Source of the DNA: Phycisphaerales bacterium
GTDB lineage: Bacteria; Planctomycetota; Phycisphaerae; Phycisphaerales; JAGLTS01
DNA: 64,000 nucleotides
Assembly (NCBI GenBank): GCA_023135165.1
Contig: JAGLTS010000060.1
Span: 166 to 64,165 of the forward strand
Reading direction: 5' to 3'
Under the pieces are notes generated by a model. It made no database searches. It was not told the DNA's origin and saw nothing but the letters and a program-made list of their open reading frames with translations. Positions 12,748 through 32,680 of the stretch are shown here, in pieces (position 1 is the stretch's first letter; the number at the start of each line of letters is the position of its first letter). Made by a program: the position numbers and the translations under genes.

Positions 12748-13013
12748 GGCAACCTCCAGATCACTACGGGAACATCTCACCTTTGTCCGCAACGAGGCCC
12801 CGTCTGTACCGGCCCCACATCACCCACCAGGGTGTGCACCTCCAGCCTACACGCGAATCACGCTGCGTCTAATAACATCTGCATTTTTTCGCGCTGTTTC
12901 TTGGGTATTACTGGACACACACCAATCACGATGGATACTGAACCGCGCAACGCGATGAATGCATTGCTGAACGATTCACCTCTTTGGTTCACGTATCTCT
13001 GGAGGTCCATGCC

Positions 13014-13772
13014 ATGAGCGAGTTCATCTCAAAGCCGCGCAACGTCTTGCTCTCTCTTGTGTTGCTCTGCGCCGTCGTCATCACTGCAGCGCTCGTCACG
13101 CGCAACACGACACACGCACTGCTGCAAGACCCACCCGTCGACTCCCATGAGCTTGCCGCCGCGCTTGTTCGAGTCGGGTTCGATGTCGATGCGCTCGCCG
13201 CCGCCGGGCTTGACGGGCAGGATGTCGAAGATGTCGTCGATGCTGTGCGCGCTTACTTGACCCAGCACGATGGCGAGCTCGACGATGCCGATGACGCGTA
13301 TGCCCAGGCGCGCCGTGAAGCGGACATGCTCCGCAGGCTCATCCGAAGCGGATGCGCAACTGGCGAGCAGGTCAGTGCCTACGCGCAGGCCAAGGTCGAT
13401 CTGGACGATGCAGCGGCTGCACGCGATGATGTCCTCGATGCGATCTATGGCGTGGGGGTGGGCGTGGGGGTGGGGGCGCTGACTCAGACGCAGCAGAGCA
13501 TCCTCAGCACCATCCGCGCCAATGCCGCCTGGCGATCGCCGCACAACCTGCAGTTCCTCGCCGATGATTGGACGCAGCAGGAATGGGTCGATCTGCGCGA
13601 CGCACTGGCCAACGAACGCATCGCACAGAAGAACGGCGAATACGCCGATGCCGGCTGCCAGACGTTCCTTGCCGTCAAACGCGCCGATGCGGATGTCACC
13701 GCTGCTCGCACCAACCATGCGGCCTACATCAGTACCGTCGACTCGGCCTGGAATGATGCGATCGATGGGTAA
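13014..13772 (+). CDS. Exported helical hypothetical protein, divergent from the RHS gene
   Basis: GGAGG RBS, N-terminal hydrophobic segment, Ala/Asp-rich helices and host-like codon usage. Confidence 0.75.
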   Translation: MSEFISKPRNVLLSLVLLCAVVITAALVTRNTTHALLQDPPVDSHELAAALVRVGFDVDALAAAGLDGQDVEDVVDAVRAYLTQHDGELDDADDAYAQARREADMLRRLIRSGCATGEQVSAYAQAKVDLDDAAAARDDVLDAIYGVGVGVGVGALTQTQQSILSTIRANAAWRSPHNLQFLADDWTQQEWVDLRDALANERIAQKNGEYADAGCQTFLAVKRADADVTAARTNHAAYISTVDSAWNDAIDG

Positions 13773-14184
13773 GAGGCGATCCCTGGCCATCGCCGATTGG
13801 GTCTTTTTCTCAGTTTCTGTGCAAATGCGGCTCTGGGCGGCGTAGTAGTGATAGGGAGGGTGTGCCTTCTGTCAGTGCATCGATCTCCACGCATGCCCAT
13901 CGCCCGCCAAGAGAGGCGCTTGTTTGAGAGTGGTGATGAACGCCAGTACTTCAGTGTCGACAGTCCAACAACCCGTCGCGTTTGCGGCCTCAACACCCAA
14001 CAAAAGGCGAAGAAAGCCAAATGACCGACTTCATGGCCAACCCGGCTGCGGCTATCGTCTGACCCAGGTGGGCTCCAATTGCGCGCCGGGGTGGGTCCCT
14101 CTTACACGCCGATTACCACCCTGTGATGCCCTAGCTTCCCGTCCCAGCAAGGGTAGGGCCGGGAAGCCACGCCCTTGGGCTCGC

Positions 14185-14330
14185 CCAACAAGACCCGGCC
14201 GGTGGTCAGCGTGGACACCAGCCAGCGGCTCCAGCACACGATCGCGTTCGCCGACGCGCAAGGCTAAGCCAGCCAGCGTGATGGGGACCGAAACCTGGGT
14301 CAAGGTCGGCGACCCGCCCCAGCGAGTTAG
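14185..14330 (+). pseudogene. Fragment of a hypothetical gene
   Basis: RPVVSVDTSQRLQHTIAFADA and KAKPASVMGTETWVKVGDPP occur in different frames. Resembles a hypothetical family I recall from planctomycetes (unverified). Confidence 0.35.
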
Positions 14331-14532
14331 GCTTTCTGTTAGTTGACGTTTGCACGCTGTATGTGGTAGACTGCCTTGGCGTAGTTGGCGGCAAGACCGC
14401 CAACTACATGCTCGCTGGGTCGCCACGACCGGCGAAAAGGGGCCGTGGAGCGAAACAGCGAGCGCGACGATTGGACCTTGGTTATTCACGCCGCAAGTGA
14501 CGCGGCACAACCATCCAACTCTGAGGTGAAGC

Positions 14533-14925
14533 ATGGCCAAGAACAACCGGATTTTCATCAGCTTCGCGATCGAAGACAAAGACTCTCGGAACCTCCTGGT
14601 AGGGCAGGCCAAGAACGACAAGAGCCCCTTCTCGTTCGTTGACATGTCCGTCAAGGAGCCGTGGGACGAGAAGTGGAAGACGAACTGCCGAACGAAGATC
14701 AAGGGATGTGACGGAATGATCGCGCTGGTCAGCACGAAGACGACCAATGCTGATGGCGCCCTGTGGGAAGTAAAATGCGGCAAAGAGGAATTGGGGGCGT
14801 CGCGAATTCGAGGGATCTACGTTGACTCGAAGAACAAGCCCGCGAGTCTACCACCTGAGTTTGCAGGCATACGCGTGGTTGAGTGGTCGTGGGCCAATAT
14901 CAAGAGCTTCCTTGATTCGCTCTAA
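14533..14925 (+). CDS. TIR-domain protein (ThsB/MTH538-like)
   Basis: RIFISFAIED, IKGCDGMIALVS and WEV with the catalytic Glu. GAGGTG RBS. Confidence 0.85.
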   Translation: MAKNNRIFISFAIEDKDSRNLLVGQAKNDKSPFSFVDMSVKEPWDEKWKTNCRTKIKGCDGMIALVSTKTTNADGALWEVKCGKEELGASRIRGIYVDSKNKPASLPPEFAGIRVVEWSWANIKSFLDSL

Positions 14926-15029
14926 CCGGAAGCGACTGTCTTCAATGACGCCTAGGCCACCAGGTGGTGCCGCGCAACCGGCTAATAGCATGGCTGCGCA
15001 AGTAACTGCGCTATGGCGGAGGAACGGTA

Positions 15030-16004
15030 ATGCGAAAGGCCCTTGTCGTAGGCATCAATTACTATGAGCACGGCTCCTCTTTGTTTGGGTGCGTGGACGA
15101 TGCCAGTTCGGTACAGAGCGTCCTTGAAAGAAACAGCGACGGCACGGTGAACTTCGACGTCAAGTTGCTGACTGCCGCCAGTCCCACAAGTACTGTGTCC
15201 AAGTCGGACTTGAAAGGATTGATTGAGGACTTATTCGCAGACGACAGTGAGGTCGCCCTCTTCTACTTCGCAGGACACGGACACATCGAGGTGACGGGTG
15301 GCTACCTTCTGACGAGCGACTCCAAAACCGGCGATGAGGGCATGCCGCTGGCCGATGTGCTCCTTTTTGCCCACAACTCCAAGGCCAAGAATAAGATCAT
15401 CGTGCTCGATAGCTGTCATTCAGGCATTGCGGGCAACCCGCCGTCCGCTGCGCAGGAAGCTCACTTATCAGAAGGCATCACAATTCTCACCGCGTCCACC
15501 AAGGACCAGTATGCGACTGAGCAGGACGGCTGTGGTGTTTTCACAACGCTCTTCGTCGACGCCCTCAACGGCCCCGCGGCCAACCTCGTCGGAGACGTCA
15601 CACTTGGTGGGGTCTACGCGCACATCGACCAGTCTCTCGGCCCGTGGGAACAGCGCCCAGTCTTCAAGACGAACGTAAAGAACTTCGTATCGCTGCGCAA
15701 GGTCCAACCTGCCATCTTGTTGGCGGAGCTTCAACGCATCACCGAGTTCTTCCCATCTCCTGGGTTCCAGTTCAAGCTTGACCCATCTTTCGAGCCAGAG
15801 CTCAAGGGGCGTGACCCCGGCATGCCACCACCCGACCCCGAGAAGACGCTCAAGTTTGCCGTGCTCCAAAAGTACAACCGCGTGAACCTTGTGGTTCCGG
15901 TGGATGCGCTGCACATGTGGCATGCTGCGATGGCGAGCAAATCGTGCGAGCTCACGGTGCTCGGCGAGCACTACCGGCGACTGGTCGAGCGAGGACGGGT
16001 TTAG
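15030..16004 (+). CDS. Caspase-like (peptidase C14) protease; effector of a TIR-caspase (type IV Thoeris-like) system
   Basis: [11 protein letters not shown], catalytic His in FYFAGHG and catalytic Cys in VLDSCHSG. Follows the TIR gene. Confidence 0.9.
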
Positions 16005-16049
16005 CCGGCATACTGCATGAGTGGTTGTCGAGCGGTCATTGATTCTGCG

Positions 16050-16160
16050 CCGGTCATGGCGGCTGCTGAGAACCTCGCCCTCCGCCACCAACTCGCTGTG
16101 CTCCGGCGATCAAGTAGGCGTCCACGGCTGCGGCAGTGCGATTGGCTCCTTGTTGCCATC
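16050..16160 (+). pseudogene. Integrase-core IS transposase N-terminal remnant
   Basis: AAENLALRHQLAVLRRSSRRPRLRQCD. Confidence 0.6.
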
Positions 16161-16374
16161 ACGCAGCGCGCTGATCTTCCCCTCCGACGTCGCATGTGCC
16201 GTCGTCGTATCCGACAGCGGCCCACGCTGCAGCGGCCCGTCCGATGCGGCATCGACTGAAAGCTCGCGCAAGCATCTGCGGTCGCAGGTGTGCGATCTCT
16301 GCACCGTCAGTGCAATCTCGCCCGTCACTGACTGCCAGCGCAGCATTTATATAGCTGCGGCGCCTCCAAGGGCG

Positions 16375-16629
16375 ATGAGAATACTGCGAACAGACATCGA
16401 GGGTGATTGCGAGGGACATTATGCGACAATAGCGAGAAGGACCGGAAGCGAGTACATTGACGTGCACGTCCTCACGCCGACGCTCGACAGAGAGCATCAA
16501 GTTCAGGCAGATGATCGGGATGATCGGTGGAGCATGGCCGAGTGCTTGCAGGAGACACTCGATGGAACGCGGGGGACAAACAGCATGATTCATGAGTACT
16601 TCCGAGAGATTGAGCGTCTTGCGTGGTGA
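16375..16629 (+). CDS. Small acidic hypothetical protein (84 aa)
   Basis: MRILRTDIEG..IERLAW; protein-like composition; upstream of the integrase. Confidence 0.5.
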   Translation: MRILRTDIEGDCEGHYATIARRTGSEYIDVHVLTPTLDREHQVQADDRDDRWSMAECLQETLDGTRGTNSMIHEYFREIERLAW

Positions 16630-16820
16630 CTGTACGTCTGACGCCGCGAAACGAACCGAGAAGCCAACATCGACGACGTGCCTATTAAGACGAGCGGTCT
16701 ACGGGGCCAGTCATCAAATCTGACTGCTGGGCAAACAGTATGTCTGTCACGCCCGCACAGATAGGTTCATGACAAGGGCAGTGGAAAGTACATAAACCTT
16801 TCGGACAGATCAAAGGAACA

Positions 16821-18005
16821 ATGGTAGAGGAAGAAGAGTACATTGACATCAAGAACAACAAGAGGAATCTGGAGCTGACGCTAGCGAGGCTGCGAGCTGA
16901 TGGGCGAATCAGCGAAACGAACAAGGAGATCATCCAGCAGTTCTTGAGGGACGCGGCGCTGGGAAAGACAGTCATCGGACGACGCAAGAAGAAGATCTCA
17001 GATGCGACGCTCATCACCTACATCCTACATCTCTACCCAGTGATGCTCTTTCTCCGCAAGGACCTAGACAAGATCGGCCAGGATGAGCTTGAGCGGTTCG
17101 TCGAGGCTCTGGAGGGTGGTGCCGTTCGATCGAGGTCACCGCGCTTGTCGGGGTCGAGGGTGGCGAGCAGTGGGGCACCGTTGAGCGAGCGATACCAAGT
17201 CAATGTGAAGAAGACGATCAAGAAGTTCTACAAGTGGCTCCTCGGTAGCCCGAAAGAGTACCCGCCCTTGGTGAGCTGGATCGATACCTACGTGCAGGAT
17301 AAGGAGGTGGCGGCCCTCTCCGAGCAGGAGATTGGGCGGATGCTGGACAGGGCAAAGACAGTCCTGCAGCGGGCGTTGATCCAGGTGCTGTTTGATGGCG
17401 GGTTCCGGATCGGTGAACTGCTCAACATCCGCCTGAAGCATGTGCGGCTGGCTCGCTTCGATCCGCGCGAGCCGGAGAAGAAGTGCTTCGTGGTCAGGGT
17501 GCCCTTCTCCAAGACCATGCCGCGCACAGTGGCATTGCCCATGCCCGCGTCCACCAAATGGCTCACGCTCTGGCTTGAGGATCACCCAGCCAGAGCCGAA
17601 ATCGCCGATGACGGATCAGTTCAGGCGAGGAACATCGATGCCCAGCTCTTCCCAACGACTGCTAACGCAGTGAGGCTCGTCGTCGGACGATTGGGCCGTA
17701 GCGTTCTAAACCAGCGTGTCTACCCACACCTCATCCGACACTCCTCCGCTACCTTCTGGGCCAATCGGCTGCCTTACTTCAAGATCTGCAAGCGCTTCGG
17801 CTGGACGATGACCAGTCAGATGCCGCAGAGGTACATCGATCGTGCTGGCATTGATGAGCTGTCAGTTGCCCGGATCTACAGCGAAGGCCAGCCACAGACA
17901 CTGCCAGGGGCAGGGTCGGAATCGAGAGGTGATGCAGACCTGTATCAGAGAGGTGCAGCGGCCGGGCGATGCGGCGATAGACGGATAGCCGCAGACGTGG
18001 CCTAA
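16821..18005 (+). CDS. Tyrosine recombinase/integrase
   Basis: Complete catalytic set: GFRIGE (R), SKT (K), HLIRH (HxxR), GW and QRY (Y). Has an N-terminal core-binding region. Confidence 0.9.
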   Translation: MVEEEEYIDIKNNKRNLELTLARLRADGRISETNKEIIQQFLRDAALGKTVIGRRKKKISDATLITYILHLYPVMLFLRKDLDKIGQDELERFVEALEGGAVRSRSPRLSGSRVASSGAPLSERYQVNVKKTIKKFYKWLLGSPKEYPPLVSWIDTYVQDKEVAALSEQEIGRMLDRAKTVLQRALIQVLFDGGFRIGELLNIRLKHVRLARFDPREPEKKCFVVRVPFSKTMPRTVALPMPASTKWLTLWLEDHPARAEIADDGSVQARNIDAQLFPTTANAVRLVVGRLGRSVLNQRVYPHLIRHSSATFWANRLPYFKICKRFGWTMTSQMPQRYIDRAGIDELSVARIYSEGQPQTLPGAGSESRGDADLYQRGAAAGRCGDRRIAADVA

Positions 18006-18628
18006 TCTCACGGAGGTCGCCCACCTGCTCGGTGTGAGAAAACCCCGCCAGCGCATCTCGGGGACGTGCCGGCAGGGCTCGTGGGGGTCTCTAGAAGCGC
18101 GTACGCTACGGACGTTAGTTTGTCCCCGGACTTCCCAAGTGTCAAGAGACAATGTGCTGAATTCGGTCAGATAGCCGGGCTGATCGCTGGCGACACCCTT
18201 CTCTCGTCGCCGGCTCACAGAGCGACGGTCCCCTACCAGGGGAGGAGGTGCCGAGATCCTGGAGGGAATCCTGTTCCTACCGCGTATGGTTTCTGGGCGC
18301 GATGTGATTACCGAGCGGGACATCCGTCCAATCGTGGCTGAATTGGACTGGAACAAGCAGCGTAAGGCTTGGTGTGCTCTCTGCGACGGGGGCAGGCCAC
18401 AGGCTCTCTCCGCAGCCTTCTCGGCCACGCTCCACTTGAGCGGCCCCGATCCTTAACGTGTGGGACGTTTGTGCCTGCATCTGCCGCTCCCAGATGGTAA
18501 CATGCGTCTATACGCCTCGATAGACGCGCGGACTTTCCCATGCAGGCCACATGATGACTCACGTGCCAGCTGCCGAGGCCATCGTTCTTCAGGAATTCGC
18601 CAATGGCATTCGACCAGAGAGTGACAGT

Positions 18629-19273
18629 ATGAACGACGACGTATGGTATGCCTGCTACGGTTCCAATCTGCGGCGCAGCCGCTTTATGTGCTACATCTTG
18701 GGCGGCACTCCGAAGGGGGCATCGGCAGCAAACCCCGGCGCTCGCAACACGACGCCGCCCAGCGACGCCAGGCCATTTCGATTGCCACACCGTCTCTACT
18801 TTGCTGAACGATCAGCCCGATGGCAACACTTGGGGATAGCGTTTCTCGAGACGAGTCGGTCAGCTAGATACAGCGCGCTCAGCCGAATATACCGCCTAAC
18901 GCGCAAACAATTTTTAGACGTCTTTGCCCAAGAGAACAGGCTGCCACTCGGTGAAGCCTCTATCGACTTTGCTGAGCTGCACCGCCGCGGATCATTGGTC
19001 GTATCAGAAAGCCTCTACGGGAACTGTCTGTATGTTGCGGATGTCGACGGGCTGCCCGTATACAGCTTTACGCGTCAAGCCGACGTGGCACCAAGCGCGC
19101 GCGTGCCGCCGGGAGAGGCCTACCTAAAGACGATAATCATGGGAGTACTGGAGACGTTTCCCGGACTAGATGCCATGCGCGACCTCGTTCCGTACCTTAC
19201 CCAAGCAACATCGGGCGAGATCAGCCAACCACTGCTGCGCAAATGGACGGTTGCCTGCATGCGGCAAGCCTAG
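18629..19273 (+). CDS. Gamma-glutamylcyclotransferase-like fold protein
   Basis: VWYACYGSNL N-terminal signature and P..AYLKTI near the C-terminus. Confidence 0.7.
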   Translation: MNDDVWYACYGSNLRRSRFMCYILGGTPKGASAANPGARNTTPPSDARPFRLPHRLYFAERSARWQHLGIAFLETSRSARYSALSRIYRLTRKQFLDVFAQENRLPLGEASIDFAELHRRGSLVVSESLYGNCLYVADVDGLPVYSFTRQADVAPSARVPPGEAYLKTIIMGVLETFPGLDAMRDLVPYLTQATSGEISQPLLRKWTVACMRQA

Positions 19274-19349
19274 CATTCGTCAACGACCTCCAAACAAGCC
19301 CGCCTCCGGGCACGACCCGGCTCGCTCGCAATCTTCTTGCCAGGTACTG

Positions 19350-20621
19350 CTAGTCCCATTTCCACTTAATGTATAGCGCTGCCCCTCTCTCTGGATGGAG
19401 GCACTGCGCGTAGTAGCATCGGTCACTTGCTCGTTTCAACGGCATCGTCTGTGACTCATCGTTCGAGCGTAGCTCTGCAACTACGTCAGTCGGTACTACA
19501 TCCAGCCTGCTGAAGTCGACCTTTAACATGAGGTCCTCAACTGGCTGGCTTGCCCGTATTCCACACTCGCGATTATCATCGCTATCGCTTATTTGAAAAC
19601 CATTAAGATACGTTAGCGTTCGCTCGACCAACACGGGCAGTGGAGCATCGCTCCGCACGGCTATTTCATAGTCGAGTGCACCTCCACCAGACGTTTTGTA
19701 ATACTTCTGAGCACTCGACGGAACGCTGCACCTGTACTTGTCAGTTTCCATCTCGTGTAGCACAATCACACCAGTCGACCGTGCGGTAAACGTCGCCTTC
19801 TGCAATTTTTGCGCGAGGATATAGTCAACATACACGGCTTCATCAAAGACATCAATCGTCTTGTCGAGCGAGTGTATGTGTCTTTTGGCTGCGGGAGTTG
19901 CGCCCTCCTCCTTGCATCGCCACGTAAGGAAGGTCACTGTTCGATGCAGTTGTCGCAGCCAGACCGGTTCACTGAGCGAACGCGATACACCCTCAAGGTA
20001 GTTGCCAACCCACTCCTGGACTTGTCGTAGTACGGTTGACTGATGTGCATCGAGTTCACTAGTGTCGATCAGCAGATCGAGCAGTGAAGCATATTGGCAG
20101 TCTGCCTGATATAATTGAGACATGGCCCGCTCGAGAGCACTCGGCGTGAGCATGCCACACTTCACTGCCAATTGGCCAACTTCTAGATCACGTGGCGCAT
20201 CCTTGCTAGGCTGGGACTTCTTGTCGTTGAGCGTATCGATGACGCCCTGAAGCGCATCTGCGAGTGGACTTTTTATGTCTGTCGGGTTATCGTATTTGAG
20301 CTGCATCCAGTGCACAAGATCGAATGGAATTGCGGCACCACGGCGAGCAAGAAGAATGACTGGCTTGCGATTTGCGTGCGCGAGGCCCAGTTCGTAGTAG
20401 ACGTTGGCATTTCCATCCGAGATGTCGGCAACTAGGACGGCGGCCGATGAAAGCAATTGCTGAATTCGAGTCGGCACGGTCTCCGGTGAGTAGTGCTCAT
20501 CGGATCGTTCGGTTGCAAAGCCTGCGAACTCACCCGCGAGCTTGATCATCTGATAAACGTCGTCATATGCCTCAGCAAACGGCATAATGACAAAACAGAG
20601 CGGTTCACTCCGAGGTGCCAT
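19350..20621 (-). CDS. Nucleoside 2-deoxyribosyltransferase/TIR-like N-terminal domain fused to an unknown C-terminal domain
   Basis: CFVIMPF, ADISDGNANVYYELGLAHA and IPFD motifs. Confidence 0.8.
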   Translation of the reverse strand: MAPRSEPLCFVIMPFAEAYDDVYQMIKLAGEFAGFATERSDEHYSPETVPTRIQQLLSSAAVLVADISDGNANVYYELGLAHANRKPVILLARRGAAIPFDLVHWMQLKYDNPTDIKSPLADALQGVIDTLNDKKSQPSKDAPRDLEVGQLAVKCGMLTPSALERAMSQLYQADCQYASLLDLLIDTSELDAHQSTVLRQVQEWVGNYLEGVSRSLSEPVWLRQLHRTVTFLTWRCKEEGATPAAKRHIHSLDKTIDVFDEAVYVDYILAQKLQKATFTARSTGVIVLHEMETDKYRCSVPSSAQKYYKTSGGGALDYEIAVRSDAPLPVLVERTLTYLNGFQISDSDDNRECGIRASQPVEDLMLKVDFSRLDVVPTDVVAELRSNDESQTMPLKRASDRCYYAQCLHPERGAALYIKWKWD

Positions 20622-20907
20622 AGGGCAACCCTCCCTCTATGTCAAAACGCGATGTCTCCGCCAACTGGTGGTGTATTCGCAGCACACTGCGTGCAGAGTA
20701 CCTGTCGGGGCGACTGCAATCACTGTCTTGCTCGGCTAACAGCGTCGCGACGGCAGACCAAGAGTGCGTGGCCGTTAAGTGGCGTGGTCGACGATAGCCT
20801 CGATCGGGTGTCAAGGAGCGGTGGTGATGGCCGAGCAAGGCGGCCAAAGGTCGTGTAGGCCACGGCAGGTTGCGCAAAACGTCATCGTACGACCGCAGGT
20901 GGCTCAT
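20605..20907 (-). CDS. Hypothetical protein (100 aa), possibly translationally coupled
   Basis: ATG lies 3 nt after the radical SAM stop and the end overlaps the next gene's start. No recognisable motif. Confidence 0.35.
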   Translation of the reverse strand: MSHLRSYDDVLRNLPWPTRPLAALLGHHHRSLTPDRGYRRPRHLTATHSWSAVATLLAEQDSDCSRPDRYSARSVLRIHHQLAETSRFDIEGGLPYGTSE

Positions 20908-20910
20908 CCT

Positions 20911-21876
20911 CTATCTAGCGCCCCGATTCATGCTGCAATGACAGTCCGTACACTGAGCGATCGCCGTCCGGCCCGCCGCGCTGCAAAGAGGTGCCTCCAT
21001 GTCCGCCAACTGGCGTGCCCTCTCTGACAACCAGACCGATTTGAATGACCGGTCTCGCACGTTTCCAAGGATCGCCTCTGGTGCCATGCTACAGGCCAGC
21101 ACATTGAAATCTGCATCGATATCGCATCTGGTAATGCCGGCTAGGCAACCAGGCGCAGACCACCGGGGGACGTCGTCGACTTCTCGCACATAGTCCGCGC
21201 ACCCACTAACGTGTAGGTCGGATGGCAGCCCACTCACCTTCTCCTCGAGAGCATCAAAGAAGTTCTTCAGCTGGATGTCGTCCACGCATAGCTCGTCCGC
21301 TGTTCGTCGATTGTCCCTGAGCTTGGTTGACGGCATTAGGTTCATAAAATGGAAATTCTTGACGCGTGGATAGAATTCATCGATTATCTGACCAGCGACA
21401 GCGATATTGTGCTTGTGGACCACGGCGGCAATCTGAAGATCGACTTCCGTCGACGCCAGCCTCTCGATGGCATTCACTGTTAAATCGGTGCATCCTCGGA
21501 CTGCGTTGTTTATATGTCCCTGTATGGCATCGAGTGATACCTGGACCCTCATATGCAATCGCTTGGAGCTGTATGCTGCCAGACGACGACAAGCGATCTC
21601 ATTGAGAAGAGTTCCGTTTGTCAGGACACTAACCCGCTCGCGAAACTCGAAGATCCCGTCGAGTATGTTGAAGATCTCTGGATGGGTAAACGGCTCGCCG
21701 CCGCCCAACACAATTTCAAACACACCAAGGTCGTGGAGTTCGCGAACTAGCCGGAGCACGTCACTTGTGGGAACATGCTGACCGGTCAGCGGGTGTGCAT
21801 AGCAGTAAACACAGTTGAGGTTGCACTGGCCTGTGATCGAAACGACCGTAATGAACGGGGCACTCAATCGATGCAT
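20911..21876 (-). CDS. Radical SAM enzyme with SPASM/twitch domain (PqqE/MftC-like peptide maturase)
   Basis: CNLNCVYC (CX3CX2C), GGGEP, TNGTL and VSLD, plus C-terminal CLAG..C.ID.D..V.AC and LGNV. Confidence 0.9.
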   Translation of the reverse strand: MHRLSAPFITVVSITGQCNLNCVYCYAHPLTGQHVPTSDVLRLVRELHDLGVFEIVLGGGEPFTHPEIFNILDGIFEFRERVSVLTNGTLLNEIACRRLAAYSSKRLHMRVQVSLDAIQGHINNAVRGCTDLTVNAIERLASTEVDLQIAAVVHKHNIAVAGQIIDEFYPRVKNFHFMNLMPSTKLRDNRRTADELCVDDIQLKNFFDALEEKVSGLPSDLHVSGCADYVREVDDVPRWSAPGCLAGITRCDIDADFNVLACSMAPEAILGNVRDRSFKSVWLSERARQLADMEAPLCSAAGRTAIAQCTDCHCSMNRGAR

Positions 21877-22277
21877 ATGCCGTAAGTCTCCAACTGATCC
21901 AGAAAAGCAACACATGCATCATGATCCAGCCCCAGAGTCGCAGCGGCAGCAAGTGGGGGTTCGTGTGCACTCAACTTCCTAAAGTATGCTGCCCCAGTGT
22001 GATTGAGCCTAAACACGGAGACTCCTGGGTGGTACGCAAGGGCGCCAAAGCTCTCGCGACGTATCACAAATGACTGTGCTGGAATCCTACTGCTCGGAGA
22101 TACTCTCTTGGGGTCGCTGGAAGGACCGTGCCATTGGCAATCGCACCAGGTAGGTCCAGTGTCCTGGTTCCAGTCATGTGACCAGTTTCGCCATTGATCA
22201 CCTCTGCTAGCCGGCGCGAATTCGGCAGTAAGTGATCTGACGAAGATGTCAATCGACGGGGAGGGATTTGCCGTCAT
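21864..22277 (-). CDS. Trp-rich peptide fused to a PqqD/MftB-like RiPP recognition element
   Basis: N-terminal WRNWSHDWNQDTGPTWCDCQW and C-terminal RRESFGALAYHP..FRLNHTGA..FLDQLETYGI. GAGGTG RBS. Overlaps the radical SAM start. Confidence 0.7.
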   Translation of the reverse strand: MTANPSPSIDIFVRSLTAEFAPASRGDQWRNWSHDWNQDTGPTWCDCQWHGPSSDPKRVSPSSRIPAQSFVIRRESFGALAYHPGVSVFRLNHTGAAYFRKLSAHEPPLAAAATLGLDHDACVAFLDQLETYGICID

Positions 22278-22513
22278 GGGATTCACCTCGCTGAAAGCGG
22301 CCTCTACGTGTTGCAAATTCTGCGGTTGATGAAGAACACTCACGCGCCCATACAACCCCCGGCCCAGGCATTGCCAGCATTCACTGGCACACGAATGAGC
22401 ACATCAGGGTGCGTAAGTGAGTCTATCAGCAACAGCAAGAGCGCGTCAAGTGGAAGGTGTGGGCCAGTCCAAGTCGAGGTGGCCTGCCGTCCGCCGAACG
22501 GATGGCCGATGAC

Positions 22514-22669
22514 TCAGGGCTTGACGGCGCCGATGTCGCGGAGCCTCCGCCCGAGTGCGGGACGCTCCATGCTCCCGCCGGAGAACCCGCCATCGTCGTA
22601 GTGGTCAGGCAGGACGATCCAGCCTTCGGCCTTCTGGCTTGCGATGAACGCCTCGGCGCTCTCACGCTG
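22514..22669 (-). pseudogene. Serine recombinase (resolvase domain) fragment
   Basis: Minus strand reads QRESAEAFIASQKAEGWIVLPDHYDDGGFSGGSMERPALGRRLRDI (my translation; not in the ORF track). Confidence 0.75.
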
Positions 22670-24496
22670 ATCGAAGATGCGTTCTTCGATGACGACGGAT
22701 GGGACCTTGAATACAGCATCGACGACCTGAATCGCGTCATCCAGGCGGAGCGAGGCGAGTGGGGAGGATCAAGCATCACGACGACCCACGAGGATGAGGT
22801 CTGGACGCTTGATCAAGTCGGCAACTGGGACATCCACCAACTCGACCTCAACGGCGATGGTGATTTCACCGACGCGGATGAACTCGATGATGATGGCACG
22901 TTCAACGCGGTCAACGAGCTGACCGCACGTGACACCGATGACGATGGCAACGACGACTACACGCTCGTCTACGATGCGGTCGGCAACCTCACCGACGACG
23001 ACGAGAACTACGAGTACATCTACGATGCTTTCGGCCGCCTCGTTGAAATCACTGACCAGAGCCAGGATACGGTCACTGAGTACGCCTACAACGGTCTTGG
23101 CTACCGTATCAGCGTCCACTACGACACCGACATTGACGGGGATGTCGATGCCAACGACGCCACCTACCATCACGTCTATGACACGCACTGGCAGGTCGTG
23201 GGAACCTACCGCAATGACGACGATGACCCGAAGGAGCAGTTCACGCATCACAGCGCTGGGGTCTCCTCCGGCCAAGGCGGATCATCCTACATCGACATGA
23301 TCATCTGCCGTGACAAGGATGCGAACACGGACTGGGATGCCGAGGCCGACGGCACACTTGAGAAGCGCACATATTACTTCCAGAACTACCACGGCGATGT
23401 GGTCGCCCTTCTGACGGATTCCGGCGCACTGGAAGAGCGCGTCTTCTACTCGCCGTACGGCGTCCCGTTCGCGAGCAGAGTCGGTGATGCGGATGCGGAT
23501 GGCGATGTGGATCAGTCCGATCTCGGCATCGTCCTCGCGGCTCTGAGCGGGCCATACAATGCCCGTTGCGACTTCGACCTTGATGGCGATGTTGATCAGT
23601 CCGACCTGGGAATACATCTCGCAACGAGTGGTTCCAGCTTGGGCAGGGGTGTCCTTTCCTCAGACGATGTCCAGAACTTCTTCGGCTACGCCGGCTACCG
23701 ACACGACGAGGCCATCGACGTCATCTGTCACGTCCGGTACCGCGTCTACCTCGCCGAGCTGGGCCGATGGACAAGAAGAGATCCACTTGGGTACGTTGAT
23801 GGAATGAACCTGTATGAGTACGCATGTGACAGCCCATTGGTCAACTATGACCCGTTCGGACTCATGTGCGGACCTGGAATGTGGTGTTATTATGGCTTGG
23901 CTCCTGCTCCAGGTCCCAAGATACCCGGCTGTCCGACGCGACAGCCCTCTGGTCCCGGACTTCTCTACAGGCTAGACGGTTGGTGCTCCGAGGGCAAATC
24001 CAAGTTCCACTGTAACAACCGCTGCTACCGATCCTACGGTAGTGGCACGACATCGGTGGGGCAGCAATGCTGTTATAGCCCGAATGGTAAACTTGATACG
24101 AGGCCGGGCTGCGCGGGTACAATTGACGGTAAAAAGGTACCATTCGGTGAGTACTTCACTGGACGCTGCATGTGGGGTCTCACGGTCGCACACGCTGGTC
24201 GCCGTATCCTCGCACATTATATTGAGGACGTGAGTCCCTATAAGCGCGACCCGAAACGGTATGAAGAGGTACAATGTTGCATCCGTGAGTTCGCTCCAAG
24301 TGGAACCCCTGGTTCGGGCATCACAGAACGTGAGTACCACCAGATCAAGCGATACTGCGAGCGCCAGGTCACGCTCGGGGGAACGTTCTGCAAGACCCCT
24401 CCTATCCTGCCACCAAGACCAGCAAGGCCTCTAGAACGCTGGCCGGGAGAGCGTGAAGGAAGGCCTCGTCCAGGATCACCCGGTCGTATGTGGTAG
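22670..24496 (+). pseudogene. Orphan RHS core plus alternative C-terminal tip (AMOP-like)
   Basis: Close paralogue of RHS segment 6865-8031 in inverted orientation, ending RDPLGYVDG..DPFG followed by a different tip. No credible start codon. Confidence 0.85.
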
Positions 24497-25406
24497 TGCA
24501 CCAGATGGCGAGCCAGGCTGTTGTCTGAAGGAGATTGCCCCCGCCGTGCCCTGTGCCCACGTCACAGATGTGCGGCATTGATTGAACCGCGGTAATCGTT
24601 GTGGACGTGCCGATACGCTACTGGAGAGTGCACGGCCCTCCAGTGTCATCCGTGAGTGCACGCGGATGCTCCCCAGACCCCTCCTGGGACCTGTCGAAGC
24701 AGAAGGATGGTGCATCCGAGAATGAAGACAGGCATGACACAACACGGCCGACCTCTCCTTGCGGATGGACCGTTGCCCCAAGTGCTGAATGCACACGACC
24801 GTTCGTTCCACCGCCCATCGTCGATTGCAGCGGTGGCGTTGTCGGCGGTCCTGCGTTCTGTTCTCCGGTATATAACTCGATCGGCGCGGCGCGATCAGGG
24901 CGATACTTGCTTTGAGCACTTCCGGATTGAGTTGATCGCTGTCGAAGAACCCGTCGTCGACTCCATCCGCGGCCGGTTCTGTCGTCGGGAGGGAGTCAAG
25001 CATGTCCTGCACAAGTCGGCTATCATCTCCGTTCGCTGGCGAGGTGTCGACGGTCTCTGGAGGGCCGCGTGTGTCCACCAAGAGCATGGATTTTTCGCCT
25101 TTGCTGAAGCTGAGGCGTCATCTTCACCGCTATCCTTGTCAGACATTCCGTCGGTGGAGGAGTCGCAGACACTGCTCCAGTCGCGCTCCTCGATGAGGCG
25201 GCCGACGGGCCTTAGAGCTTCACGGAGAACAGAGCGTCCGATCACACGACTGACTCGAATGGAACTCCATGGATGTTAACTCGAGATGCTATCACATCTG
25301 CCACTTCGGATTGGTCTCTTGCAGAGTTGTGTGTCCACGTCGAGGAATGATGTATGGAATGGGTACCTCATGATCATGTGAGTACTACTGAACCGCGAGA
25401 GAACCA

Positions 25407-26516
25407 ATGAGAATCAATCGTAGACGAACTGCCGTGAGTCTGGGCGCCTCTTTCCCTCTCCTGATCGCAGCTATCTTGCTCGCCCGCTGGGGGATCGCCA
25501 GTTGGCAAGAGAGGGCGTTCTTTGGTGCAGCCGAGCGCGGGGACGTAGTGGCCGTGCAGACAGCGCTTGATCGGGGCATAAATGTCAACACTGTGCGTTC
25601 ATACACAGAAGGCTGGACGCGCGGCGAACCGTTGCGCGTGACAGAGACAGCCCTTGAGCTTGCAGCTCGCGAGGGGCAGTTGGAGGTCGTCAGGCTGCTC
25701 CTCGACCATGGCGCGGATCCAAACATCCGATGCACGTTCAATGCGACAGCCTTGACGAGCGCCGCGATGCGCTCCGGACAGGCCGAGATCATTCGACTCC
25801 TGATTGACGCGGGCGCCGATCTCACCGTCGTTGGAGGTAATCCTGCTTTTCCATCTTCCGCGCTGGGATGGGCGGTCGGGAGGTCTGACTACGAGACATT
25901 CCGTGTTCTTTTGCGCGCATCACTGGATCAACGGTGCTTCAAGACGCTTCAGCCCGGCGCTCTGTCAGAGCTGCAGTGGCGGAGCCCGCACTCAATGAAC
26001 CGACGTTTCGCCAAGGGTCTGACAGCGGAGTACCCCGAGGGAACCATTCTGTGGGCAGCGATGCAAGGTGACTCGACATCGCTCCAGCAACTTGTCAGCG
26101 AGGCCGGCGACGTTTCGAGGGTTGGAGATGCGGATGGCTGGACGCCCTTGCATTGGAGTTCGGGTATCGAAGGCAGCCTTACAGATGTTCAGGTGCTCCT
26201 TGCCCACGGCATCGATCCGAACGTAGCAACTGTGCACGGGTATACGCCACTCATGGCGGCGGCGGAGGCAGCAGACACCGAGAAGATTCGGCTCTTGCTG
26301 CAGGCCGGCGCGGATGTCTCGCTGACAGACGAGGATGGCGATACAGCGCTTCACGCTGCTTGCCAGTACGCGCCGATCGAGGCTGTCTCGCTTCTTGTGA
26401 AGGCCGGCGCTGACGGCCGTGTCCACGCAAACGACCAAGTGAGGCCGCTGGATATAGCGAGGGAACGAGCACGAATGGGAGGCACGGACGTTACCGACCT
26501 CGTCAAGGGCCGTTAG
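25407..26516 (+). CDS. Membrane-anchored ankyrin-repeat protein
   Basis: TALELAA, GWTPLHW, GYTPLMAA and GDTALHAA repeats; N-terminal TM segment. Confidence 0.9.
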   Translation: MRINRRRTAVSLGASFPLLIAAILLARWGIASWQERAFFGAAERGDVVAVQTALDRGINVNTVRSYTEGWTRGEPLRVTETALELAAREGQLEVVRLLLDHGADPNIRCTFNATALTSAAMRSGQAEIIRLLIDAGADLTVVGGNPAFPSSALGWAVGRSDYETFRVLLRASLDQRCFKTLQPGALSELQWRSPHSMNRRFAKGLTAEYPEGTILWAAMQGDSTSLQQLVSEAGDVSRVGDADGWTPLHWSSGIEGSLTDVQVLLAHGIDPNVATVHGYTPLMAAAEAADTEKIRLLLQAGADVSLTDEDGDTALHAACQYAPIEAVSLLVKAGADGRVHANDQVRPLDIARERARMGGTDVTDLVKGR

Positions 26517-26680
26517 GACGGGTGTTGTCCCTTGTCCGTGGCGAAAGCACCATCCCATCCTGTCGCAACTCTCCGCATGACGCTAAGTCGCTAGCCAGTC
26601 AGGAGATCTGACGCCGAACGCCGCTTGTTCTCAGAGCACCGTGCCGGGTTCTGGAACGGCTAAACTGGCGTCGTGCTGAC

Positions 26681-27390
26681 TGGTCTGCTCCCCGAAATCT
26701 GATCCAGTAGGTATGAGGGTCGCAACGGCCCTGTTGAGGGGCAAGGAGACTCTCGATCATGAAGCGAAAGCGACACAGCCTTGAACAGATCATCACCAAG
26801 TTGCGTGAGGCGGACGTCATGCTGGCCACGTGCCCCACGATCGCCCAGGTCGGGCAGCGTCTGGAGGTCAGCGAGTCCGCCTGAGGAGGACTCGCGGAAT
26901 CAGTACGGGGGCATGAAGTCGTCCGACGCCAAGCGTCTGAAGGGACTCAAGCAAGAGAACACGCGGCTGAAGAGAGCGGTCGCGGAGTTGACGCTGGACA
27001 AGCAGATCCTCCGGGAGGCGGTGGACTTCCTGGGAAAGGCATGAACCCGGCCCGTCGGCGCGAGACGACGCGGCGCGTGCAGCGGATCGTGCCCACCGTC
27101 TCGCAGCGTCAGGCGTGACGGGTATTGGATCAGCCCCGTTCGACGCAGCGATACGAATCGAAGCGACCCAACAATGAGGAGATGCGTTTCGTGAAACGCA
27201 TGCACGAACTGGTTCGACAACATCCGCGTTACGGCTACCGGCGGATCTGGGCGTTGCTTCGTCTCGATGGTTGGCGTGTGAACCGCAAGCGAGTGCATCG
27301 TCTGTGGAGGCAGGAGCAGTTCGAAGTGCCGAGCGAATGGCACAAAAAGCGTTATCTCGGGTGCAGCGCGAACTCGATTGTCAGACACAT
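26681..27390 (+). mobile_element. Degenerate IS3-family element (left end, broken orfA, truncated orfB)
   Basis: Starts TGGTCTGCTCCCCGAAATCTGATCCAG. Encodes MKRKRHSLEQII, QYGGMK..RLK.L.QEN.RLK and HPRYGYRRIWALLR..VNRKRVHRLW. Confidence 0.85.
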
Positions 27391-27509
27391 ATGGTCAAAC
27401 ACGATATCATGGGTTTGAGCGATTTCGTCGCTAATCAACTCGCTGGAGAGTGGGGTTCGGAGCGCTGGCTCCCTCTTCAGCCAATACGCACGGAGGCACC
27501 ACGCTGGCA

Positions 27510-29267
27510 GTGACTCCAAATGAGTTCTGGCTCGACCTCACCAACTTCCTCAACCTTTTTCCGCATCGAGGGCTGCACCTCATGTGGTTTCTTGGGGCGG
27601 GAGCTTCTGTTGGTGCCGGTCTACCCACCGCAGGAACGCTCACATGGGAGTTCAAGCGAGAGCTGTACTGCAACGCCCAGCGGCTTCCACCGTCTCGATT
27701 CCCCGACCTCCATGAGCCAGGGTTTCAGCGACTCGTTCAGGCGTATTTCGACTCGAAAGCAGGCTTCCCAAAGCTCGGCGACGATGAGGAGTACTCTGCC
27801 TACATTGAGGAGTATTTGCCCGATGAGCGTGACCGTCGCCGCTTCCTGGATTCGAGACTCCAAGGCTGCAAGCCATCCTACGGACACCTTTGCTTTGCAG
27901 CATTGATGAGCCTCGGTCGGATTCGACTGGCTTGGACGACAAACTTTGACCATCTCATCGAGAAGGCGTGTGCGTATCCCGTTATCGAGGAGAAACTGGC
28001 CCGCTCTCTTGCTATCGTTGGGCTGGAGCAGCCGGACAAGGCAGGCGACCTCATCCGTGATGAGGCCTGGCCATTGCTCGTGAAGATGCATGGAGATTTC
28101 CTCTACCGGAAACTCAAGAATACCACGCCCGAGCTTCAATCCCAGGATTCGACTCTCCGACATCACCTCACAGAAGAGTGTGGCAGGTGTGGCCTCGCCG
28201 TTGTCGGCTACAGCGGACGCGATGTCTCGGTCATGAGCACGCTGACCAACGCTCTACAGGCCAAGGCCCCTTTTCCTCACGGGCTATTCTGGTTTGTTCG
28301 TCCTGGCGAGCAGCCGATTGCCGCCGTCCAGAGCCTCATCGTTCAGGCTCAGAGAGCCGGGGCTCAAGCCGTATTCGTAAAGGTGAACACGTTCGACGAG
28401 CTCATGGCGGACCTGTTCCTGCCGCATCAGGATTCCCTCGCTGAGGTCTGCGATCTGGTTAGGGTTGCTAGGCCAGCCAGGCGGGCAATGCCCATCAGTT
28501 ACAGCGCCTCTGCTCCTTGGCCCGTCCTGAGAACTAACGCTCTGCACATCACCACGTATCCCGCCACCTGCACTGTCTTCCAGTCGACGGTGGGCAAGAC
28601 CAGCGAGGTAAAGGCCCTGACGCGCCCGCACTCGGCCGAGATGGTGGCTTTCCGTCGGAGGGTGGGTGTCGTCGCCTTCGGCACACGAGATCGGCTCAGC
28701 GAAGTGTTCGACCAGTTCGACGCCAAGGAATTTGACCGTCACAGCATCGAGGAGCGTCGCCTCCGCTACGACTGCCCCGAACTTGGGCTTCTTTACCACG
28801 CACTCGTGCAGGGGATCGCCAACAAGACGGGTTTGCTCAGATCGCAGAACGCGAAGGGCAGATTCCTTTTCGCCGCGGACACCCAAGCGTTCACGCCTGA
28901 GGAGTTGAGGGTCTTTCGCGGACTAAGGTCAAAAGGCGTCTGGACCCTTCGACCAGGAGTAGTTCTCCATGAGGGATTCGAGCTCTCGCTCGACTTCCGG
29001 GACAACCGCTTCTGGATGCTCTTGGACCCCACCATCGTTGTGACCGCCGACGGCCGAGTCCCGTACAAAGGGACTGACCGCTCGGAGATTGCACGTGAAC
29101 CACTCGTGACACGGTACAACAAGCAAAGGAACGCAACGCTTCAGCTGTGGATTGGGTTTCTGCAAAGGCATTGCGGAACACCTCTCAAAGCAGCGTTTCC
29201 ATCTGACGCCCAACGGGAAGCGGAGTTCACTATCTCGACGGTCACTGCGTATGCGAGGAAGGCATGA
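27510..29267 (+). CDS. SIR2-APAZ NADase of a short prokaryotic Argonaute system (SPARSA-like)
   Basis: FLGAGAS..AGLPT, WTTNFD, KMHGDF and VVGYSGRD sirtuin motifs. Overlaps the pAgo start by ATGA. Confidence 0.88.
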   Translation: MTPNEFWLDLTNFLNLFPHRGLHLMWFLGAGASVGAGLPTAGTLTWEFKRELYCNAQRLPPSRFPDLHEPGFQRLVQAYFDSKAGFPKLGDDEEYSAYIEEYLPDERDRRRFLDSRLQGCKPSYGHLCFAALMSLGRIRLAWTTNFDHLIEKACAYPVIEEKLARSLAIVGLEQPDKAGDLIRDEAWPLLVKMHGDFLYRKLKNTTPELQSQDSTLRHHLTEECGRCGLAVVGYSGRDVSVMSTLTNALQAKAPFPHGLFWFVRPGEQPIAAVQSLIVQAQRAGAQAVFVKVNTFDELMADLFLPHQDSLAEVCDLVRVARPARRAMPISYSASAPWPVLRTNALHITTYPATCTVFQSTVGKTSEVKALTRPHSAEMVAFRRRVGVVAFGTRDRLSEVFDQFDAKEFDRHSIEERRLRYDCPELGLLYHALVQGIANKTGLLRSQNAKGRFLFAADTQAFTPEELRVFRGLRSKGVWTLRPGVVLHEGFELSLDFRDNRFWMLLDPTIVVTADGRVPYKGTDRSEIAREPLVTRYNKQRNATLQLWIGFLQRHCGTPLKAAFPSDAQREAEFTISTVTAYARKA

Positions 29268-30712
29268 GCAACGATAACCAAGACCTTCTTCCAGCATTCG
29301 ACGGGTTGACTGAGCCCACCTTGCTCTTCCATCCTGACCGCGACGGAGATGTGGATGTTCACCCGCTCCGCGGCCTTCAGCAGTTTGGGCCGTACTCCAG
29401 AAGCCATAACTTCATGCTCCGAGATCCTCTTCATGTCGCCGTTCTCTGTCCTGCCGGAGCACTACCGAAGATCGTGCAGTTGTTCAGCGAACTTCGCTCC
29501 ACGCAGCGCCCGCGGGAGCGTCGGCACTACCTTCAGGATTTCGACGGCTTCTCGAAGGTGTTCGGTATCGGTCTCGACTGTCCTCTCCATCCGGAAGACG
29601 AGCGTGTTTGCGAGCTTCCAACCAGCCAACTTGAATCCGCGCTTAAGAGCACTGAGCCACAGCAACAGGTCGCCGAAATGGTCTTGTCTGGCGTACGCCA
29701 CCTCGCCGCCAAGAAGCACCTCTACGACGTGCTCGTGGTTTATCTCCCAAACTGGCTTTCGCTGGCGTTTCGCAGTCCGCCGGAGGACCTCGAAAGCGAT
29801 TTTGATCTCCATGACACTCTCAAGGCCGTATGTGCAGCTCAAGGCGTTCCGGTCCAAGTTCTTAATGACAACGCCCTTACGTACTTCTGCAGATGCAGTG
29901 TCGCATGGAGGCTCTCGCTAGCTATGTATACGAAAGTCGGTGGCGTTCCTTGGAAGCTTGCTGGCTTTGAGAGCCGACACGCCTACGTTGGTCTGTCCTA
30001 CTGCCTCCGCAAGGGCGCTCCAGCTCAGTTCGTGACCTGCTGCAGCCAGATATTCGATGCCGAAGGCACGAATCTCCGGTTCCTCCTGTATGAGAGCCAG
30101 GACGGCCTCTATGAAGGGGACAACCCATACCTTCGTCGTCAAGACATGCGGCGGGTGATGGCTCGGACTATCGACCTGTACCAGAGGCAAAAGGGCGCAC
30201 CGCCGACTCGGTTGGTGGTGCACAAGACCACGCAGTTCCGGCCTGACGAGATTGATGGCTGCGTCGATGCGCTCGGTTCGGTGGACGACTTGGAGCTCTT
30301 GACTGTTTCGGCAAGAACACCGTGGCACGCCATCCGTATTGACGCCCCGAAGACGCGCGGCCCGAAGGGCGTGCCAGCCAATTACCCCGTTGAACGCGGC
30401 ACCGTGCTTCCGCTCGGTGCCTACGAGTACGCCCTCTGGACCCAGGGCAACGCTTCGAGTATCGGCACTGGCAGCTACTTCAAAGAGGGCAAGGGTATTC
30501 CACACCCGCTTCTGGTGACCAGGCATCTCGGAACGGGTGGAACTCATTCGTCTGCCCGCGAGCTACTGGGCCTCACCAAGATGAACTGGAACAACGACTC
30601 CCTCTATGACCGCCTGCCCGTCACGCTGAGCTATGCATCGGTGCTCGCTCGTGTCGTCAAGCGGCTCGGCACGCTGAGTAGCACGCCCTACGACTTCCGT
30701 TTCTTCATGTAG
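29264..30712 (+). CDS. Short prokaryotic Argonaute (MID-PIWI, no intact DEDX tetrad seen)
   Basis: LHDTLKA, YTKVGGVPWKL, RLVVHK..F and LGLTKMNWN..LPVT; ends YDFRFFM. Confidence 0.92.
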   Translation: MSNDNQDLLPAFDGLTEPTLLFHPDRDGDVDVHPLRGLQQFGPYSRSHNFMLRDPLHVAVLCPAGALPKIVQLFSELRSTQRPRERRHYLQDFDGFSKVFGIGLDCPLHPEDERVCELPTSQLESALKSTEPQQQVAEMVLSGVRHLAAKKHLYDVLVVYLPNWLSLAFRSPPEDLESDFDLHDTLKAVCAAQGVPVQVLNDNALTYFCRCSVAWRLSLAMYTKVGGVPWKLAGFESRHAYVGLSYCLRKGAPAQFVTCCSQIFDAEGTNLRFLLYESQDGLYEGDNPYLRRQDMRRVMARTIDLYQRQKGAPPTRLVVHKTTQFRPDEIDGCVDALGSVDDLELLTVSARTPWHAIRIDAPKTRGPKGVPANYPVERGTVLPLGAYEYALWTQGNASSIGTGSYFKEGKGIPHPLLVTRHLGTGGTHSSARELLGLTKMNWNNDSLYDRLPVTLSYASVLARVVKRLGTLSSTPYDFRFFM

Positions 30713-30724
30713 GCAGGAGTAGCG

Positions 30725-32589: not shown

Positions 32590-32680
32590 GCTCTCGCCAG
32601 GTTAATCCAGGACGTGTACGTCGGTGTGTAGTGCACGTGGAAGTGAGGGTGGCGCGCGATCCAGCGTTTGACACGCCGGA
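32590..32680 (-). pseudogene. IS630-family transposase remnant
   Basis: VKRWIARHPHFHVHYTPTYTSWINL. Confidence 0.75.

Follow-up and report, generated by a model that had tools for sequence, protein, structure and literature searches.

A Trp-rich predicted peptide precursor fused to its own recognition element and encoded with a radical S-adenosylmethionine enzyme in a Phycisphaerales bacterium

The window, a 64,000-nucleotide stretch of contig JAGLTS010000060.1 from a Phycisphaerales bacterium, carries on its minus strand a two-gene cassette in which a 137-residue protein, P0001, is encoded directly ahead of a radical S-adenosylmethionine (SAM) enzyme, P0002. Within one open reading frame (ORF), P0001 joins a leader, a Trp-rich core and a C-terminal RiPP recognition element (RRE), the domain through which pathways for peptides that are synthesized by the ribosome and modified after translation (RiPPs) bind leaders. 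The cassette comprises the following features, of which the RRE, leader and core assignments are supported by the evidence given in brackets.

22284..22289, minus strand: ribosome-binding site GAGGTG, 6 nt before the ATG of P0001
21864..22277, minus strand: P0001, leader-core-RRE fusion protein of 137 aa, predicted substrate (family hidden Markov model [HMM], AlphaFold model, structure match)
22218..22256, minus strand: leader of P0001, residues 8-20 (family consensus, model, covariation)
22122..22193, minus strand: Trp-rich core of P0001, residues 29-52 (identity with the orthologue P0150; low model confidence)
21867..22082, minus strand: RRE of P0001, a PqqD/MftB-like winged helix, residues 66-137 (model, structure match)
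20911..21876, minus strand: P0002, radical SAM enzyme of 321 aa (PF04055, PF13186; CxxxCxxC at 18/22/25)

The ORF of P0001 has a good ribosome-binding site, its five Trp residues (W29, W32, W36, W44 and W49), which are the predicted modification sites, all lie in the N-terminal half, and its gene shares 13 nt with that of the enzyme. The G+C content of the cassette is 0.55 compared with 0.63 for the genome, and promoter and terminator scans gave nothing informative. One assembled contig of run X1, which may be this DNA's own source, spans positions 19300-22450 with zero differences or gaps. A frameshift or assembly artefact as the origin of the fusion is ruled out by this clean spanning contig, together with the intact fusion across the family.

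The C-terminal half of P0001 has no Pfam match, P0001 scores weakly on the MftB model TIGR03967 (17.1 bits against a cutoff of 33), and its Atlas neighbours are PqqD/MftB clusters at 0.90. In an AlphaFold2 model built on a 104-row alignment, residues 61-137 form the three strands and three helices of a PqqD-like RRE with a predicted local distance difference test score (pLDDT) of ~95. Compared with 48,161 chains, this model is most similar to TbiB1, an RRE of a lasso-peptide pathway (Z 8.8, root-mean-square deviation 2.0, 71 residues aligned), and RiPP proteins, aligned over residues 66-137, account for five of the top six rows; Foldseek with the same model returned no match at E<=0.001. R73, E75 and G78 are near-invariant in this domain. 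The N-terminus is also modelled with confidence, as a strand (residues 9-13) and a short helix (residues 16-19) with block pLDDT values of 88 and 81, and residues 21-60 are modelled at low confidence (pLDDT 52-58). Across the family, the leader follows the consensus I-E-L-(Y/F)-(L/M)-x-S-(I/L)-x-Q-E-F, and a modest covariation signal connects it to the RRE through the pairs 7-92, 10-90 and 14-87, which run in antiparallel register on strand β3. As leaders bind RREs at strand β3 in the account given in passages of PMC7470986, the secondary structure, pLDDT and covariation suggest that the leader strand of P0001 pairs with β3 of its own RRE.

Relatives of P0001 were reached through the neighbours of related enzymes, as ORFs of 120-230 aa just upstream that contain the leader, a variable aromatic- or Cys-rich middle and the RRE; a word-index search with P0001 alone found none. 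Searches with profiles returned 94 proteins and, at the E<=1e-3 level, 229 clusters of 50% identity, 108 of them at E<=1e-10. The family HMM, built without P0001 and P0150, recovers P0001 over its full length at 70 bits (E 6e-19), the next segment of the genome scoring 12 bits. No Pfam or NCBIfam model reaches its cutoff for 16 aligned members, nor any NCBIfam model for 12 more. Named hosts include Acidobacteriota, Nitrospinota, Scalindua, Methanothrix, Bathyarchaeota and a nanoarchaeon, in addition to a Nitrospira protein and a Polaromonas plasmid. Within the genomes searched, few were positive: P0001 itself gave only weak matches (E 7e-4 to 0.01) in 401 genomes of its phylum, where profile A2 found the fusion in one genome only (G000), plus one RRE-radical SAM fusion and one lone RRE; profile A3 found it in 1 of 301 genomes of another phylum and recovered only its seed among 401 of a further phylum; and a search with P0144 was positive in 0 of 7. 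The family is therefore rare in the genomes searched. A scan of viral contigs gave 55 distant radical SAM loci, none with a match to the fusion.

The fusion is tightly linked to the enzyme. In all 16 clade loci that were found through the enzyme and have at least 400 bp upstream, it lies directly before the enzyme gene, either overlapping it or within ~55 bp (the start of the fusion counted at locus L010 runs off the contig, and locus L013 begins inside the enzyme); at locus L231, which was reached from the fusion, the enzyme is present and the overlap is again 13 nt. Distances among enzymes and among fusions are correlated (Mantel rho 0.81, 15 pairs), which shows co-inheritance only. A conserved leader and a variable core are thus co-inherited with the enzyme as in a RiPP precursor, here fused to the RRE. 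No other small ORF recurs within 1 kb: comparison of 501 ORFs from 18 loci gave 0 matches across loci. Among 73 neighbouring ORFs scanned with Pfam (72 of them from 17 fusion loci, one from locus L017), peptidases (M48, S9, M28) and transporters (ABC-2, twice; EamA; phosphate ABC) occur near single loci, with no recurring type of either; no conserved protease for core release is found near the loci, and remote proteases are possible. At one locus only (L011:6540-6998), a Cys-rich ORF with repeated C-x-C-x-x-C units directly follows the enzyme. At another (L009:583-1284), an in-frame TGA falls exactly at the Cys position of the relative L010 and the frame continues into the RRE, possibly reflecting a core selenocysteine or a natural split; no clear SECIS-like signal follows this UGA (z 0.02 and -0.35).

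Selection acts on the core, which is better conserved than its scaffold between P0001 and its orthologue P0150. The two are 50% identical overall and share all five Trp, with identities of 20/24 in the core, 30/69 in the RRE and 6/24 in the flanking spacer and linker (Fisher p 8e-4 for core against RRE and 1e-4 for core against spacer plus linker, with boundaries chosen after viewing the alignment). Across the family, we parsed 151 sequences and could split 118 into leader, middle and RRE, the other 33, which were fragments or did not match the patterns, being left out. The middle contains at least one Trp in 113 of the 118 and none in five, and Trp makes up 6.0% of the middle compared with 1.1% of the RRE. 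These Trp are strongly patterned: a spacing of 4 was observed 130 times against 30.6 in shuffles and a spacing of 3 was observed 61 times against 36.7, while spacings of 1 and 2 are depleted. Among 144 units with a spacing of four, 97 have Asp, Asn or Gln (D/N/Q) at position +3, and among 63 with a spacing of three, 50 have one of these at position +2, against a background of 0.19. Although hypervariable, the cores consist of W-x-x-(D/N/Q) and W-x-N units or else of Cys pairs; W-x-K-(S/E)-C-C or C-C-D-G-F-C-C cores are found in another large group. Aromatic-x-X and aromatic-x-x-X motifs like those of triceptide, dynobactin and darobactin precursors are thus present, and the spacings with their D/N/Q partners are the registers of triceptides and dynobactin, whose bonds are Trp(i)-Asn/Asp(i+2) and Trp(i)-Asn(i+3), respectively, in passages of PMC11002830. 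The earlier note on this DNA, made from its letters alone, had described a gene with five Trp in its N-half and an MftB/PqqD-like C-half, overlapping a radical SAM gene, and had proposed a substrate-side fusion of a Trp-rich precursor to its own RRE. These points are borne out by the ORF, the RRE fold and the 13-nt overlap, and the fusion proves to be a widespread family tied to enzymes of a single clade; the conservation of the Trp motif, on which the proposal had been made to depend, is seen in P0150.

P0002 is a radical SAM protein (PF04055, 71 bits; PF13186, 30 bits) that has the CxxxCxxC motif and a C-terminal extension of SPASM/twitch type, specifically a twitch-like domain with conserved auxiliary Cys residues at 244, 262 and 298. 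Partner enzymes of the fusion form one clade (Shimodaira-Hasegawa approximate likelihood ratio test 92 in a quick tree of 67 rows; SH-like support 99 in a FastTree tree of 47 rows). Its members have no RRE of their own, conserve the three auxiliary Cys and mostly end soon after the last of them. P0002 alone among 24 aligned enzymes has three extra C-terminal Cys (residues 309-314, window 20935-20952), which could be a fourth ligand or a remnant. At locus L017 (L017:219-3224), the clade enzyme is followed by a tryptophan halogenase, possibly a tailoring variant. Against curated maturase models, P0002 scores far below every cutoff, with MftC, ScmE, WgkB and AlbA ranking above DynA; its best NCBIfam match is MftC (TIGR03962, 102.9 bits, cutoff 265). 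Among 24 clade members, the best DynA match has an E of 6e-21, weaker than AlbA and MftC, which places the clade outside the DynA/AmcB-type cyclophane maturases. Enzyme family relationships therefore do not reveal the chemistry. With PADLOC 2.0, the clade enzymes match viperin models only, over the radical SAM core (58-89 bits); no specific model matched, and no fusion protein scored below E 0.009.

A complex model of P0001 with P0002 scored 0.74 compared with 0.01 for the best control, with runs agreeing in at least 40% of contacts and a partner pLDDT of at least 67; 116 of 157 solved complexes attain this mark, as do 2 of 215 mismatched pairs. Because RRE-enzyme complexes have already been solved, this pass may come from likeness to them and shows likeness rather than binding. 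In the model, the confident interface would comprise R73, E75, Y82 and V88 together with leader residues 13-18.

Plasmid-borne copies extend the family to cultured strains. The Polaromonas plasmid pW10NP1 carries a standard fusion-enzyme pair, WP_181375059.1 and WP_181375060.1, set 12 bp apart, with a recombinase and a toxin-antitoxin gene as neighbours. In five Klebsiella records, a Col plasmid of 4,773 bp combines a clade enzyme with a divergently transcribed gene of 74 aa, as does an E. marmotae plasmid of 7.7 kb (L232:988-2239; L234:2452-3700); the product of this gene has a leader-like start, a W-x-x-H-W-x-x-Q-W core and the RRE strands with one helix, the last two helices being missing. 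This mini-fusion scores only 18 bits on the family HMM, and its membership is therefore probable, not certain. The Klebsiella and E. marmotae mini-proteins are identical over their first 39 residues, including the core, with cassette DNA that is 77.6% identical. Neither a transporter nor a protease nor an immunity gene is annotated on these small plasmids, and this speaks for a product that stays inside the cell. Among 12 plasmid radical SAM loci fetched from 41 matches, one has the full fusion, two have the mini form and nine belong to other systems; tblastn with the fusions P0014 and P0145 gave no plasmid match, and a search with the Klebsiella cassette gave no match in 5,426 E. coli genomes. 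The Klebsiella plasmid also has a 97-aa ORF of about five 15-residue repeats (L232:2774-3067).

Downstream of the cassette and around it lie the following features.

20605..20907, minus strand: 100-aa open frame, with no well-spaced ribosome-binding site
19350..20621, minus strand: NDT/TIR-like protein of 423 aa (N-terminal domain, PADLOC TIR effector model E 3e-7), with its own strong ribosome-binding site
4600..58735, approximate, no strand assigned: host element of ~54 kb inserted in comM, the halves of which lie at 3942-4631 and 58732-59595
57179-58741: serine recombinase at the far end of the comM element

The earlier note had extended the system to both of the downstream frames, and here its picture changes. 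The 100-aa frame exists as an open frame; it has no family, its exact sequence is absent from the protein collection, and neither a plasmid match nor a well-spaced ribosome-binding site supports it as a gene, so that it is probably intergenic and outside the system. An NDT/TIR-like N-terminal domain is indeed present in the 423-aa gene; the suggested partnership with the cassette is not supported, as an NDT partner was found in 0 of 9 informative loci (those with more than 800 bp downstream). Linkage to NDT/TIR genes, which the note had offered as a check, did not appear when the NDT domain was searched by tblastn against 17 fusion loci (only a 22-residue match, E 0.045), no TIR/NDT family was found in the Pfam scan of the 73 neighbouring ORFs, and no NDT-type gene is annotated beside the Polaromonas and enterobacterial plasmid copies. 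Judged from sequence, the NDT-like gene appears to be a neighbour in the island, and its membership of the system is not supported. The note's remark that the locus has no protease or transporter holds: a Pfam scan of 30 window ORFs gave no transporter, and the only protease is a caspase-like gene (15030-16004), which is paired with a TIR gene elsewhere in the window.

We propose that P0001 is a self-addressed RiPP substrate of P0002, in which core Trp residues are cross-linked to residues at i+2 or i+3 (probability about 0.55). That P0001 is a substrate is very probable, and, given that status, Trp-to-(i+2/i+3) cross-linking is its likely modification. The starting point is the architecture itself, in which leader, variable core and RRE form one ORF across a large family. 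The leader strand would pair with β3 of the RRE in its own chain, in the manner of free leaders on discrete RREs, and the core would loop out. The leader-RRE unit is predicted to dock on the N-terminal face of the enzyme via R73/E75 and leader residues 13-18, holding the core near the active site. There, a 5'-deoxyadenosyl radical would take H from the residue two or three positions after each Trp (mostly Asp, Asn or Gln), and a bond between that carbon and the indole would produce successive rings of three and four residues, each with a shift of -2 Da; the clearest candidate pairs in P0001 are W29-N31, W32-D35 and W44-D46. In Cys-core members, the Cys sulfur could act in place of the indole. 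In the weakest step of the scheme, the product would remain intracellular, as the entire cross-linked protein or after trimming by housekeeping proteases; the lack of a conserved protease or exporter makes this likely.

Several observations weigh against this proposal. An HMM of the leader only missed P0001 in its own genome, and an HMM of the Cys-core subclade alone gave it 10.8 bits (E 0.83), which therefore places P0001 on the Trp-rich side of the family. Locus L017 lies in the clade, yet has no fusion in the 218 bp available upstream. The pairing of the leader with β3 is itself a prediction, and its top covarying pair, 7-92, may reflect subclade structure. P0002 falls outside the DarE, DynA and triceptide families (DynA 52.5 bits, cutoff 450; AmcB 44.3 bits, cutoff 425). 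D/N/Q is also enriched just before the first Trp (42/158) and more so after the last (46/124, non-CC members), and this enrichment on both sides suggests that the direction of cross-linking is not settled by it. As the family members are related, the counts are not independent and p-values overstate. Finally, 44 of the 118 cores hold at least two Cys; with these Cys-rich cores and the Trp-free ones in the family, Trp cross-linking cannot be its only chemistry.

Another explanation keeps the substrate and its in-cis docking and changes the chemistry to Cys thioethers, or to oxidation, epimerisation or cleavage of the core, with Trp serving recognition or the function of the product. The best solved relative of P0002 by profile is the thioether-forming SkfB (E 9e-31), the MftC and AlbA models are matched as well, three auxiliary Cys would leave one iron site open as judged from known thioether-forming enzymes, C45 is conserved in P0150, and a large subclade has cores with paired Cys. 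However, 68 of the 118 cores have at least two Trp and fewer than two Cys, several members (e.g., P0144 and P0158, and the Cys-free UVT16042.1) have no core Cys, and the strict 3/4 Trp periodicity with D/N/Q partners reproduces known Trp cross-link registers; on balance, we regard a different chemistry as unlikely, if credible. P0001 could instead be an RRE-type accessory subunit whose Trp loop binds or regulates, the true substrate (a peptide, protein or small molecule) being encoded elsewhere. Mycofactocin-like systems have separate precursor genes, the complex model places no core residue (29-52) at its interface with confidence, and release of a core flanked on both sides would need two cuts, with no conserved protease at hand. 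This explanation is improbable in view of the 18 loci in which no other small ORF recurs, of a leader that is modelled and covaries as if filling the RRE's own peptide site, of the constant leader with hypervariable repeat cores that is the usual precursor pattern, and of the Klebsiella and E. marmotae proteins, whose first 39 residues, core included, are identical despite the divergence of their cassette DNA. Very improbable is a single defence or signalling system that unites the fusion and its enzyme with the 100-aa ORF and the NDT-like effector, the latter being under the control of the modified peptide. Its four frames are co-directional and close, have low G+C (0.53-0.55 vs 0.63) and lie inside a defence-rich element, but no NDT/TIR homologue stands beside the 17 fusion loci, 9 of which have more than 800 bp downstream, or is annotated by the plasmid copies, the 100-aa ORF is unsupported as a gene, and the NDT gene has its own ribosome-binding site. 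A local NDT link within the P0150 subclade is conceivable.

Compared with known systems, our cassette for a predicted Trp-cross-linked substrate resembles mycofactocin, where an RRE gene also directly precedes the radical SAM gene; P0001 has the MftB-like R-x-E-x-F-G strand, and MftC is the best NCBIfam match of P0002. By their scores, however, P0001 and P0002 fall outside MftB and MftC, no small ORF recurs, and no peptidase or other mft gene is conserved near the cassette; here, precursor and RRE share one chain, the Trp- or Cys-rich core is internal, and the enzyme keeps three auxiliary Cys. The Trp-x-Asn/Asp and Trp-x-x-Asn registers and the repetition of motifs in one core are features of triceptides (XncB, OscB, MscB) and of dynobactin and darobactin, as described in parts of PMC11002830, whereas P0002 lies outside their families by sequence, their precursors are free peptides, and the cross-links here are predicted. 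WprABC and WgkABC (PMC11851443) share a twitch-type radical SAM enzyme, repeated Trp motifs in one precursor and dependence on a small chaperone; there, the chaperone is a separate gene and the motif is WPR rather than WxxD/WxN, and the WgkB model gives P0002 72 bits (cutoff 650). For sactipeptides and ranthipeptides (SkfB, AlbA type), defined by Cys in every core and a thioether bond, the picture is mixed: Cys is missing from several of the cores here and abundant in the 44 of 118 noted above, and SkfB is the best solved relative of P0002. In burpitides, the substrate is joined to part of its own machinery in one chain. Borosins, too, fuse the substrate to a biosynthetic domain (10.1101/2024.01.09.574750), the difference being that the fused part is catalytic or borosin-specific in these two classes and an RRE adaptor here, with a separate radical SAM enzyme. 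Lanthivirins resemble the cassette as RiPP clusters without their own protease, the mature product of which has not been isolated, and offer a precedent for a defensive RiPP (10.64898/2026.08.26.747419, in part); they differ in their lanthipeptide chemistry and in being anti-phage, defence here being only a plausible role by analogy. Sequence comparison thus indicates that the cassette works like an RRE-dependent radical SAM RiPP pathway, yet belongs to no named class tested.

As to function, the mobile and patchy distribution fits an accessory conflict or defence function, and a defence role is plausible by analogy, given the mobile and defence-rich settings, the variable cores and the lanthivirin precedent; several fusion loci sit among housekeeping genes. 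A more speculative extension, which we hold only tentatively, is that one promiscuous radical SAM clade staples the hypervariable poly-Trp or poly-Cys cores (up to 19 Trp) of a new class of precursors that each bring their own leader-loaded RRE. In this view, some cores would contain selenocysteine, and the stapled protein itself would remain intracellular and act, from only two genes, against phages or competitors, with islands and small plasmids as its means of spread. Passages of PMC7470986 describe RREs as discrete proteins or as fused to enzymes, and the parts of the literature that we covered describe neither a precursor-RRE fusion nor six member accessions, while the supplementary tables of RRE-Finder and the radical SAM atlas may list members. 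A natural precursor-RRE fusion reverses the usual logic and would be missed by pipelines that seek a short free precursor, and the family is large, spans bacteria, archaea and plasmids, and matches neither Pfam nor NCBIfam models at their cutoffs. Its cores amount to a natural collection of Trp and Cys repeats served by a single clade of enzymes; this points to a catalyst that is tolerant in cross-linking and to a ready scaffold for peptide engineering in which the loop is swapped and leader and RRE are kept. Two genes suffice and copies are present in cultured strains, making chemistry and function directly testable.

The comM element that hosts the cassette also holds a TIR-caspase pair, a SIR2 short-Argonaute system, a STAND-like ATPase, a ThiF protein and RHS genes, in addition to a second, tyrosine recombinase (16821-18005), a HerA-like ATPase and a DNA methylase. 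The TIR-caspase pair (window 14533-16004), a ThsB-like TIR gene followed by the caspase-like gene, is likely a defence pair, and positions 27450-30712 encode SIR2-APAZ together with a short prokaryotic Argonaute (PADLOC 512 and 544 bits). A 2137-aa RHS protein is encoded at 6379-12792; at 22457-24496, an inverted C-terminal cassette of it, 76-84% identical and with a different tip, is followed by an ankyrin protein, an arrangement reminiscent of an orphan toxin-immunity module. G-rich or C-rich repeats with a 9-nt period are dispersed in both orientations around the region of the ThiF gene (51600-56038).

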